Translations under genes and position numbers: made by a program
In this document: positions 5,969-53,197 of the stretch, piece after piece
Layout of the letters: each line of letters starts with the position of its first letter
Position numbering within the stretch: position 1 is the first letter of the stretch
Source: Escherichia coli
GTDB taxonomy: Bacteria > Pseudomonadota > Gammaproteobacteria > Enterobacterales > Enterobacteriaceae
Direction: 5' to 3' (one strand)
Length of the DNA stretch: 64,000 nt
NCBI RefSeq assembly: GCF_003334815.1
Contig: NZ_QOWO01000010.1
Notes under the pieces: generated by a model
Database searches by the model: none
What the model was told of the DNA's origin: nothing
Seen by the model: only the letters and a program-made list of their open reading frames with translations

Positions 5969-6298
5969 TCAACGCTGTGGATTTTGTAACTGACAGTTAT
6001 TCAAGACGATGCGGTCGCGTTTATAGACAGTCGCTTCATCGCCTTTCGACCAGAAAACATAGATTCCGTCAGTGTAACGCGCGCCAGAGGCTGAAATGCC
6101 CTGTTTGAGATGCAGTAGTTGATTATCGTAAACAAAACTGACCTCCTGGCGCGGATTATTCAGTTTGACCGTCAACGGTTTTTCATCACACTGGTATTCC
6201 AGCGTATCGGTTTGCATGCGCTCAACCAGCTGATTAAAGGCGCTACAGCCGGAGAGAAGGACCGGCAAAATGATAATTAACAGTTTTTTCATAGTCAT
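5969..6298 (-). CDS. mliC: membrane-bound lysozyme inhibitor of C-type lysozyme (lipoprotein)
   Basis: 109-aa ORF with lipoprotein signal ...LLSGCSA; recognised as MliC (YdhA). Confidence 0.9.
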
Positions 6299-51993: not shown

Positions 51994-52362
51994 CTATACC
52001 CCAAAGCTTTCGCCACAGCCACATTCATTCTGGGCTTTAGGGTTGTGAAATTTGAATATCTGATTAAGTCCTTCACGAACGAAATCGACTTCCGTGCCAT
52101 CAATAAACGGCATCGCTTGCAGCGGGACAAACAGCTTCGCGCCGTCGTGTTCAAACAGCAGATCGTCTTTGTCCGGCTCGCTAACACTGTCGAGCACATA
52201 GCCAAAGCCCGCGCAGCCCGTTTGCTTCACGCCTAAGCGCACGCCGACCATACCCGGCTGCTTTGCCACCAGCTCACGGATGTGTATCGCCGCTGCGGGT
52301 GTCAGCGTTAAGCCTTGCCAGGCGAAATCTTGTGGGTTAAAGGTTCCTGAATGCATGTCCAT
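51994..52362 (-). CDS. sufA: Fe-S cluster A-type carrier SufA
   Basis: 122-aa ORF ending in the conserved ...CGCGESFGV motif. Confidence 0.95.
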
Positions 52363-52406
52363 CGATTTACCTCACTTCATCGCTTTCAGCGTATAACAGC
52401 ATGTTA

Positions 52407-52423: not shown

Positions 52424-52688
52424 TTCAACCCAGCAAACGCAGGGGCTTTACCGTAAAACATGCTTTTTGCCTGCTTTTAATAAGCATAGACCCTGATGTG
52501 TGGGTTAACAGGCACGCTAAGAATTAGGTATCTCATTGTTAGATAATGGTTATTATCTAAGGAGCATTAAGGCTGTGATGAAAAAGAAAAAGTTGTATTG
52601 AAAATGACTATTTAAGAGATAGGTAAAAAAGTGCAGCGTTCAGAAATAAGAAAACCCTTAAGTCTGTGCGACACAGGCTTAAGGGTTT

Positions 52689-52756
52689 CTACCCCATCCG
52701 GCGCTTATCTCCGGCACTCTCAGTGGCTTAGCTCTTGAAGGGGCGATAAGAATAAT
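52689..52756 (-). ncRNA. rydB: probable RydB small RNA (boundaries approximate)
   Basis: sufA-ydiH intergenic location where RydB is reported; position taken from remembered reference coordinates. A strong minus-strand hairpin with U-rich tail lies immediately downstream at about 52635-52680, so the true 3-prime end is uncertain. Confidence 0.4.
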
Positions 52757-52909
52757 CTCATAAAGCTAACCCGCCGTTTTAACACAAACTGCGATTAGTA
52801 TTATTTTTGAACAATATCAGGCGGTAGATAAGCAGTATTAAGAAGGTCATCGAACCTGGACGGAGGTTAATCCAGGTCGATTTGGCGAACTTGCGGCATT
52901 AAGTCAGGA

Positions 52910-53098
52910 TCAATGCACGCCCAGACGCCAGGCAAAGTAGATTTCTTCTTTTAATTCAGCAGAAGAGAGAGTAAGCAGGTCAGCAAATTCAAGTTCTAGT
53001 TGTTTCAGACGTTTGAGATATTGGGCAGGTGAAAGATTGCTCTGGTCACGGCGTAAAAATTCAATGGCCAGCTGGGTGGGATCAAGTTGAGTAGACAT
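52910..53098 (-). CDS. ydiH: small uncharacterised protein
   Basis: 62-aa ORF MSTQLDPTQLAIEFLRRDQSNLSPAQYLKRLKQLELEF... from the internal ATG; upstream extension in the ORF track judged spurious. Confidence 0.75.
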   Translation of the reverse strand: MSTQLDPTQLAIEFLRRDQSNLSPAQYLKRLKQLELEFADLLTLSSAELKEEIYFAWRLGVH

Positions 53099-53197
53099 AG
53101 CATCCTCGCTTTTAGACAAGACCTGCACAGTATACCACCGTTTACTGTGCAGATAATGACCAAAAGCAATATGCGTCACACTTTTCTGGTGACAACG

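Follow-up and report, generated by a model that had tools for sequence, protein, structure and literature searches.

RydB (b4430; Rfam RF00118; alias tpe7 or IS082) is a small RNA of Escherichia coli. It reportedly has a size of 60 nt on Northern blots and an effect on rpoS. Other papers repeat that it lowers rpoS expression. A 2024 study lists no known targets or regulators for it. A preprint describes persister and peroxide phenotypes for the deletion. One study classed RydB as Hfq independent. The Hfq enrichment of Salmonella RydB is only 2.5-fold (4 to 10 reads) in Sittka et al. 2008. Salmonella rydB was also reported among the sRNAs most strongly repressed by ppGpp, alongside SsrA and SsrS.

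Two kinds of described element resemble parts of this locus. Hfq-dependent sRNAs bind Hfq through their terminator hairpin and U-tail. RprA is one of them and lies at 58348-58455 of the window, by which we mean the whole 64-kb stretch of E. coli DNA that was analyzed. RydB is likewise an independent intergenic gene with its own promoter and terminator, but the mature RNA has lost both the hairpin and the U-tail. The absence of the terminator from the mature RNA may explain the weak link with Hfq. Canonical intrinsic terminators, such as that of lpp (45650-45678 in the window), have a stable stem-loop with G/C pairs beside a U run. The rydB hairpin shares these parts. It differs in having an interrupted U-tract and an unusually long stem (17-18 pairs) with an A/U-rich middle. 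The Term-seq 3' end of lpp lies in the U-tract, whereas that of rydB lies upstream, inside the 5' arm of the hairpin. From this position, the terminated end of rydB would not be the one that accumulates.

Locus and identity

The interval between sufA and ydiH contains the already known E. coli sRNA gene rydB and its terminator hairpin. The finding itself is a rediscovery of a catalogued sRNA and its terminator. The MG1655 genes sufA, rydB, ydiH, and menI correspond one-to-one with the window at a constant offset of 1712024, and the minus-strand position of rydB, with ydiH on one side and sufA on the other, is that of the named E. coli gene. menI is farther upstream than ydiH. The annotated neighbors and the gene are as follows.

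51994-52362, minus strand: sufA coding sequence, first gene of the iron-sulfur operon sufABCDSE; transcription start site (TSS) at 52394 (Kim et al. 2012, PMC3415461)
52689-52756, minus strand: rydB (b4430) as annotated in MG1655 RefSeq (NC_000913.3 1764713-1764780)
52910-53098, minus strand: ydiH coding sequence, same-strand neighbor upstream of rydB, with its stop at 52910

The original prediction had placed RydB on the minus strand here. It was right in this, and b4430 is at the same locus. The Rfam model RF00118 (rydB) matches 52684-52744 on the minus strand with 81.6 bits, against a gathering score of 50, and with E = 9e-18. The match is complete and covers model positions 1-61 of 61. A permissive Rfam scan of 52560-52960 gave only rydB as a credible match, and the remaining matches had E > 1. 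The window copy is identical to the catalogued RydB in sequence, locus, and strand. The RNA itself is thus unchanged from the catalogue; its description differs in the ends and in the P2 helix.

Of 5426 E. coli genomes, 5422 contain the 551 bases around rydB, and many complete genomes match them with 100% identity. rydB is single copy in E. coli, with a median of one place per genome among 5376 genomes and no second copy found. The 18-mer that covers the P3 hairpin has a single near-match elsewhere in the 64-kb window, at 6248 with 3 mismatches. As a whole, the window is E. coli K-12-like in character.

Ends of the RydB RNA

Published maps place both ends of the RNA. Kim et al. 2012 (PMC3415461) mapped the rydB TSS to NC_000913.2 1762792 on the minus strand, which is window position 52744 and lies 12 nt inside the annotated start. 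The upstream 51-mer given for this TSS in their supplementary file 2 ends in ...TATGAGATTATTCTTATCG. The curated Term-seq 3' ends of Adams et al. 2021 (PMC7815308) include just one at this locus, MG1655 1764708 on the minus strand (window position 52684), labeled 'primary, rydB'. rydB appears three times in their three-sheet table, and across the four supplementary files 1764708 is the sole number that begins with 17646-17649. rydB had no entry in the Cappable-seq supplements.

Few 3' ends in the cell are as abundant as that at 52684, which has 2.17 and 4.14 million reads in two sheets (PMC7815308). The same data give 0.18 million reads for the lpp terminator and 3.5 million for the tRNA aspV. 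The end lies 5 nt past the annotated rydB 3' end, 8 nt past the P1 helix, and 2-3 nt within the 5' arm of the downstream hairpin. The mature 3' terminus reads ...AUGGGGUAGAAACC.

52684-52744, minus strand: mature RydB RNA, 61 nt (RF00118 match, published TSS, and Term-seq 3' end)

A TSS at 52744 and a 3' end at 52684 make the accumulated RydB 61 nt long, which is exactly the RF00118 match. The 3' end inside the hairpin 5' arm makes the mature RNA one without the hairpin. The mapped ends agree with the Rfam model. RefSeq/EcoCyc places rydB differently: its coordinates are off by 12 nt (5' end) and 5 nt (3' end), and the annotated 5' end falls within the -10 hexamer of an extended -10 box.

These results bear on the original prediction in several ways. 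It had given the RydB interval as about 52689-52756, which is exactly the MG1655 annotation; the real RNA occupies 52684-52744. It had proposed that the 3' end of the sRNA might be processed, and this option is favored by the sole Term-seq end at 52684, inside the 5' arm, with none at the U-tract. It had named an Rfam search for RydB and TSS and Term-seq maps as checks; the search returned the full-length match, and the published maps returned 52744 and 52684. It was to be given up if Rfam had no match and no discrete small transcript came from the interval. The match scored 81.6 bits, and the published maps show a discrete 61-nt transcript with a TSS and an abundant 3' end.

Promoter

We aligned 25 orthologous rydB units from five genera (Escherichia, Salmonella, Citrobacter, Silvania, and Leclercia). 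Two conserved elements lie upstream of the mapped TSS.

52752-52760, minus strand: extended -10 element TGaGATTAT, predicted from conservation and TSS position
52777-52782, minus strand: conserved TTAAAA, 19 nt upstream of the -10 hexamer, near-invariant in the 25 orthologues

The -10 hexamer is at 52752-52757, and the mapped TSS is 8 nt after its last base. The pattern TGnGAnnnT at 52752-52760, which includes the TG, A(-11), and T(-7), is invariant in 25 of 25 orthologues. The spacer that separates TTAAAA from the -10 element is not conserved among them. TTAAAA may be a weak -35 element or another upstream element. A simple promoter scan did not call the rydB promoter. We attribute this to the rules of the scanner, which face an extended -10 element without a -35, and not to the absence of a promoter.

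Structure of RydB and its family

The comparative structure of RydB contains three stems around a junction.

52740-52744 with 52691-52695, minus strand: RydB P1, with covariation in the family
52728-52739, minus strand: single-stranded junction UUCAAGAGCUAA
52725-52727 with 52716-52719, minus strand: RydB P2, with a bulged A at 52718 and covariation in the family
52709-52714 with 52698-52703, minus strand: RydB P3
52684-52690, minus strand: 3' tail AGAAACC

Folding of the 61-nt RNA by itself gave a z score of about 0. The minimum free energy was -14.7 kcal/mol, versus -11.0 and -10.1 kcal/mol for the comparative structures, and the minimum free energy fold agrees with neither of them. Thermodynamic folding of RydB is thus uninformative, so the structure rests on covariation.

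We collected related loci by an exact search with the P3 18-mer GCCGGAGATAAGCGCCGG in one genome per species, about 298 billion bases. The search gave at least 120 loci. A RydB-like core motif was present in 103 of the 120 matches listed with enough flank, almost all of them from Enterobacterales. The other 17 of the 120 matches listed lack the core motif and come mostly from unrelated phyla; the chance expectation for an 18-mer was estimated at about nine. On this comparison, RydB belongs to a predicted family of three-stem RNAs that numbers at least 100 copies in Enterobacterales. RF00118 scored most of the tested copies above threshold, some of them barely (51-53 bits), and gave no match in copies L006 and L109.

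The family copies have common parts. They have a -10-like box about 7 nt upstream, a P1 of 4-6 pairs, a junction with an invariant AGAGCUA, a P2 of variable length, the P3 hairpin, and the 3' arm of P1. The sameness of P3 follows from the search key, since the loci were collected by the exact P3 18-mer. Pairing in P1 and P2 was kept in 92.5% of cells in 73 sequences and in 94% of cells in 104 model-aligned matches (95 distinct). None of 500 shuffles had P1/P2 covariation as high, and slid controls reached at most 52%. The data favor a P2 in which GCC would pair with G-A-GY, leaving an A bulged, and in which a variable helix continues the stem; the Rfam consensus instead pairs GCU with AGU. In the divergent copies L061 and L109, a pair changed on both sides fits the revised P2 only.

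Several genomes carry more than one copy. They belong to Pantoea, Erwinia, Rouxiella, Serratia, Raoultella, Enterobacter sp. JUb54, and an assembly labeled Martelella alba. The neighbors of the family copies are unrelated and include sufA, a PphA-like phosphatase, OsmC, LysR regulators, an MscS-like channel, and a PTS permease; some copies precede convergent genes. These unrelated neighborhoods indicate an independent RNA gene rather than the leader of one gene class. They also bear on one alternative for the E. coli locus, that the RydB core acts in cis as a leader, a riboswitch-like aptamer whose expression platform would be the hairpin and which would govern read-through into sufABCDSE: the compact three-way junction, its invariant junction and loop nucleotides, the terminator immediately after it, and the position on the sufA strand about 330 nt upstream of sufA in Escherichia and Citrobacter would suit such a leader, but transcription of sufA starts at 52394, about 250 nt beyond the U-tract, so that RydB is outside the sufA 5' UTR, other copies precede unrelated or convergent genes (PphA-like phosphatase, OsmC, LysR regulator, and MscS-like channel), RydB accumulates as a discrete abundant 61-nt species, and no switch is evident since the P1 3' arm and the hairpin 5' arm do not overlap, which makes this reading highly improbable and, by the varied gene contexts, already largely refuted.

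Two other ideas about the family were rejected. A mobile element was considered. A phage search for the RydB family gave no matches, and the plasmid matches were mislabeled chromosomes or non-mobilizable megaplasmids (Pantoea, Rahnella, and Klebsiella). A manganese-riboswitch-like sequence downstream of Sodalis-type copies was a guess that Rfam did not support.

The downstream hairpin

A stem-loop and a U-rich tract follow RydB.

52651-52689, minus strand: stem-loop downstream of RydB (inverted repeat, folding energy, and conservation), a probable terminator
52642-52654, minus strand: U-rich tract UUUUCUUAUUUCU, 10 U in 13, read from the sequence

The original prediction had described a long perfect hairpin and a minus-strand U-rich tract between sufA and ydiH. 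Both features are present, with arms of 17 nt and a folding energy of -24.4 kcal/mol. The inverted repeat is real, but it is not perfect: the arms are 94% complementary and contain one C/A mismatch. The prediction had also put a transcript end about 230 bp past ydiH. This was a fair estimate: from the ydiH stop it is 221 nt to the start of the hairpin and about 265 nt to the end of the U-tract.

The arms are at 52652-52668 and 52672-52688 and are separated by a 3-nt loop. The hairpin is the second-best close inverted repeat within the 64-kb window. On the minus strand it reads GAAACCCUUAAG-C-CUGUG-UCG-CACAG-A-CUUAAGGGUUUU, followed by CUUAUUUCU. The lower stem, GAAACCCUUAAG/CUUAAGGGUUUU, has 12 pairs. 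It is followed by the C/A mismatch, an upper stem of 5 bp (CUGUG/CACAG), and the loop UCG. CCC/GGG at the hairpin base adjoins the U-tract, and the first four U of the tract also pair with GAAA at the stem base. The energy of -24.4 kcal/mol was obtained for a 56-nt segment, with z = -4.46 and 0 of 200 shuffles as stable.

The structure is conserved. We examined 18 proposed pairs in the 25 orthologues, and 94% of cells were paired. Six pairs change on both sides, none of 500 shuffles matched this, and slid controls were at most 65% paired. One example of a change on both sides is CCCUCAAG/CUUGAGGG in the Leclercia hairpin. The upper stem and loop vary freely with compensation. The lower stem, AACCCUUAAG/CUUAAGGGUU, hardly varies, and pairing is preserved where it does: U-A is replaced by C-G in Leclercia, and G-U wobbles occur in two Escherichia lineages. 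All 25 orthologues have TTTT straight after GGG, and the run reaches 6-7 U in Citrobacter. Salmonella enterica subsp. arizonae and diarizonae carry the same hairpin.

The hairpin thus has a stable G/C-based stem, a U run, and a structure conserved with compensatory changes, as a terminator would. A simple terminator scan did not call it, probably because one C/A mismatch interrupts the stem. In the RepRanger paper, rydB is assigned a rho-independent terminator and no REP, and the reading of the repeat as a REP element was rejected on this ground. The Term-seq tables (PMC7815308) record no in vivo 3' end at the U-tract, so termination at the hairpin is inferred rather than directly seen. Removal of the hairpin after termination would explain the absence of such ends.

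Proposed expression of the rydB unit

We consider it very probable that rydB is a unit that starts at 52744, terminates at the hairpin, loses the hairpin to give the 61-nt RNA, and is thereby kept out of the suf promoter. Transcription would start from G 52744 at the extended -10 promoter TGaGATTAT (52752-52760). The first 54 nt would fold into the compact three-stem junction of P1, P2, and P3. Polymerase would then cross the 39-nt hairpin (52651-52689) and the U-tract and would most likely terminate intrinsically, giving a primary transcript of perhaps 95-100 nt. The hairpin would then be removed to leave the very abundant 61-nt RNA that ends at 52684.

How the hairpin is removed can only be suggested from the position of the end, which is 12 stacked positions from the hairpin loop. 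An endonucleolytic cut in the lower stem is a guess. A staggered double-strand cut would fit, and an RNase III-type enzyme is the leading guess. Such a cut would leave four A-U or G-U pairs, as might be expected for a double-strand-specific endonuclease. Alternatively, exonucleases may trim the RNA back to its folded core. rydB has no entry in the supplements of the RNase III study of Gordon et al. 2017.

Orthologues and family copies support the assignment of the hairpin to rydB. The Salmonella orthologue is listed at 1450415-1450519, 105 nt, in Sittka et al. 2008. This equals the length from the E. coli TSS to the end of the U-tract. The listed 105 nt would thus include the hairpin, whereas the abundant E. 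coli species is 61 nt long and lacks it. In Citrobacter, the gene upstream of RydB is not ydiH but a LysR-family regulator beside a Vmh-type metallo-hydrolase gene, and the same hairpin directly follows RydB. Across the family, a hairpin with a U-tract occurs at most 110 nt downstream in 71 of 101 copies, compared with 38 of 300 random positions in the same loci. These downstream hairpins have unrelated sequences. Their frequency indicates that a terminator hairpin is part of such genes.

Conservation of the stem is also where one alternative begins. In it, the stem-loop would be mainly a processing or recognition element, either an RNA site for a nuclease or protein or a palindromic DNA operator, and its terminator look would be secondary. 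Among the 25 orthologues, the lower stem hardly changes, which is more constraint than a plain terminator needs, while the loop and upper stem differ; the stem may therefore do something else as well. A mature end within the 5' arm, separated from the loop by 12 stacked positions, and a U-tract with no recorded Term-seq 3' end (PMC7815308) are both compatible with this. Against it, the few lower-stem changes keep pairing, which points to selection on RNA rather than on a DNA operator. The TTTT after the stem is invariant, family members elsewhere have unrelated hairpin sequences, and rydB has no entry in the RNase III supplements of Gordon et al. 2017. We regard a mainly processing or recognition role as doubtful.

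The hairpin could also belong primarily to the upstream genes. It would then terminate ydiJ-menI-ydiH, RydB would merely precede it, and the end at 52684 would be made independently. It is the first strong stem-loop downstream of ydiH, and the Term-seq tables (PMC7815308) have no 3' end between ydiH and rydB. The rydB TSS is the only one between the sufA and ydiJ starts (PMC3415461). Kim et al. 2012 (PMC3415461) list no TSS for menI or ydiH between the rydB and ydiJ starts, and both genes may use the ydiJ promoter. The Citrobacter loci do not fit, as there the hairpin stays directly behind RydB although the upstream gene is not ydiH. RydB-type genes at unrelated loci usually have a terminator hairpin of their own (71 of 101, against a background of 13%), and there is no terminator-like feature between 52744 and 52684. 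Primary ownership by the upstream genes is therefore unlikely. Termination of ydiJ-menI-ydiH and termination of rydB by the same hairpin may both occur, as the two are not mutually exclusive.

Position relative to the suf operon

rydB points at sufA, and about 20 nt separate the end of its U-tract from the distal suf regulatory region. One further feature lies there.

52608-52622, minus strand: palindrome CTATCTCTTAAATAG, OxyR-like, just past the U-tract (putative)

The palindrome block is conserved in the Escherichia loci and is recognizable in two Citrobacter loci. The palindrome is presumably the OxyR site that lies distally in the sufA regulatory region. The suf promoter literature places the OxyR site at about -236 to -196, and the assignment combines this with the sufA TSS at 52394.

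From this arrangement we infer that the hairpin shields the suf promoter. Polymerases that started at rydB, or that read through from ydiJ-menI-ydiH, would most likely be stopped before they reach the suf promoter. With so active a promoter as that of rydB directed toward suf, a strong stop would be needed at this position. The original prediction had suggested regulatory cross-talk in this region; for rydB and suf, such cross-talk is so far a matter of geometry only.

Implications

The analysis adds corrected ends for RydB, a hairpin that is conserved in the rydB unit yet lost from the mature RNA, and the picture of a family. Deletions, overexpression constructs, and target predictions based on the RefSeq/EcoCyc coordinates include 12 nt of promoter and miss the last 5 nt of the RNA. 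RydB constructs in which the hairpin is retained may differ from the natural RNA. With the very active rydB promoter directed at the suf control region, the question arises whether the hairpin insulates suf.

Given its abundance, its constrained three-stem fold, and the multiple family copies in other genera, RydB is a plausible candidate for an RNA that binds a protein or a ligand. As a tentative and less certain extension, RydB may be, rather than a usual base-pairing regulator, the single-copy E. coli member of a family of compact three-way-junction RNAs, each with its own promoter and a terminator that is trimmed. The invariant AGAGCUA of the junction and the P3 loop region GAGAUAAGCG would then bind a specific protein or small ligand, and the near-invariant lower stem of the E. 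coli-type hairpin would be the site of the enzyme that frees the core.

Boundaries of rydB

The RefSeq/EcoCyc annotation of rydB conflicts with both published end maps, namely the transcription start site of Kim et al. (2012) and the Term-seq 3' end of Adams et al. (2021).

52689-52756, minus strand: rydB as annotated in RefSeq/EcoCyc
52684-52744, minus strand: RydB as mapped

The annotation starts the gene within the -10 hexamer; the mapped start site is 12 nt further downstream. The Term-seq 3' end lies 5 nt beyond the annotated 3' end. The mapped ends are exactly those of the Rfam match (52684-52744).

Surroundings of rydB

Three elements flank or face the gene.

52777-52782, minus strand: conserved TTAAAA, 19 nt upstream of the rydB -10 hexamer
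52608-52622, minus strand: palindrome CTATCTCTTAAATAG, some 20 nt beyond the U-tract of RydB
52631-52738, plus strand: predicted ORF of 35 aa with a GTG start, antisense to RydB and its hairpin

For a -35 element, 19 nt would be a long spacing; the sequence between TTAAAA and the -10 hexamer is not conserved. The palindrome presumably corresponds to the suf promoter's OxyR site. The block that holds it is conserved in Escherichia loci and is recognisable in two Citrobacter loci.

Other elements in the window

The window holds these further elements.

53108-53167: longest close inverted repeat of the window, located after the menI stop and before the start of ydiH
25429-25819, minus strand: STnc550, Rfam match (396 bits)
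58348-58455, plus strand: RprA, Rfam match (118 bits)
34411-34565, plus strand, and 34530-34692, minus strand: listed intervals of further Rfam matches, to two tRNAs and "HPnc0260 antisense RNA"

The inverted repeat has 28-nt arms that are 79% complementary and 4 nt apart, and it includes CTGCACAGTA/TACTGTGCAG. The HPnc0260 match lies on the strand opposite the second tRNA, which it overlaps; the tRNA sequence is probably what produces the match.

The RydB-like family

The matches listed (loci L002-L121, from other genomes) place RydB-like RNAs in a family that spans Enterobacterales. Pantoea, Erwinia, Rouxiella, Serratia, Raoultella, and others carry several copies per genome among these matches, and each copy count is to be read as "at least." Examples are L010/L035/L036, L028/L029, L033/L034, L055/L056, L061/L062, and L109/L110; L083 holds two copies. 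Among the same matches, every copy comes with a -10 box of its own, and most also with a terminator of their own. Their gene contexts are unrelated to one another.

(a) Pantoea sp. AS-PWVM4. This genome contains a divergent copy with a weak match (24.9 bits; L021:6794-6853, plus strand). Its P3 stem is ACGU/ACG(C)U, versus CCGG/CCGG. A full RydB-like copy lies about 1 kb downstream, and the divergent copy may be a decayed duplicate.

(b) Atlantibacter. The copy in L042:3936-4416 lies about 270 nt from a SraC/RyeA-SdsR/RyeB pair and has a PphA-like phosphatase gene downstream. It is therefore at a locus other than that of E. coli rydB.

(c) Sodalis-type copies. These six loci (L006, L040, L041, L083, L088, and L115) share a conserved block about 40 to 110 nt downstream (...CAGAAAAGCGCATCGGCTACTTACCTCCTCG.AAGAGGGAGTACAGCAAAGGTTGTCGGTGCGC). 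The block matched no Rfam family at gathering score in L006, L041, and L083, nor in a permissive scan of L041.

Structure of RydB and its hairpin

For the P2 stem (52716-52727, minus strand), both family alignments (A1 and A2) favour a helix in which GCC pairs with G-A-GY, one A is bulged, and a variable extension follows. In the Rfam rydB consensus, GCU pairs with AGU instead. The alignments suggest the revised helix over the consensus pairing but are not conclusive.

The downstream hairpin was compared in A3, an alignment of 25 orthologous rydB units. Its lower stem, AACCCUUAAG/CUUAAGGGUU (52655-52662 and 52678-52687, minus strand), is nearly invariant over the five genera, and the upper stem and loop are variable. 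Such near invariance is more than a plain terminator would need. The lower stem may be a processing signal.
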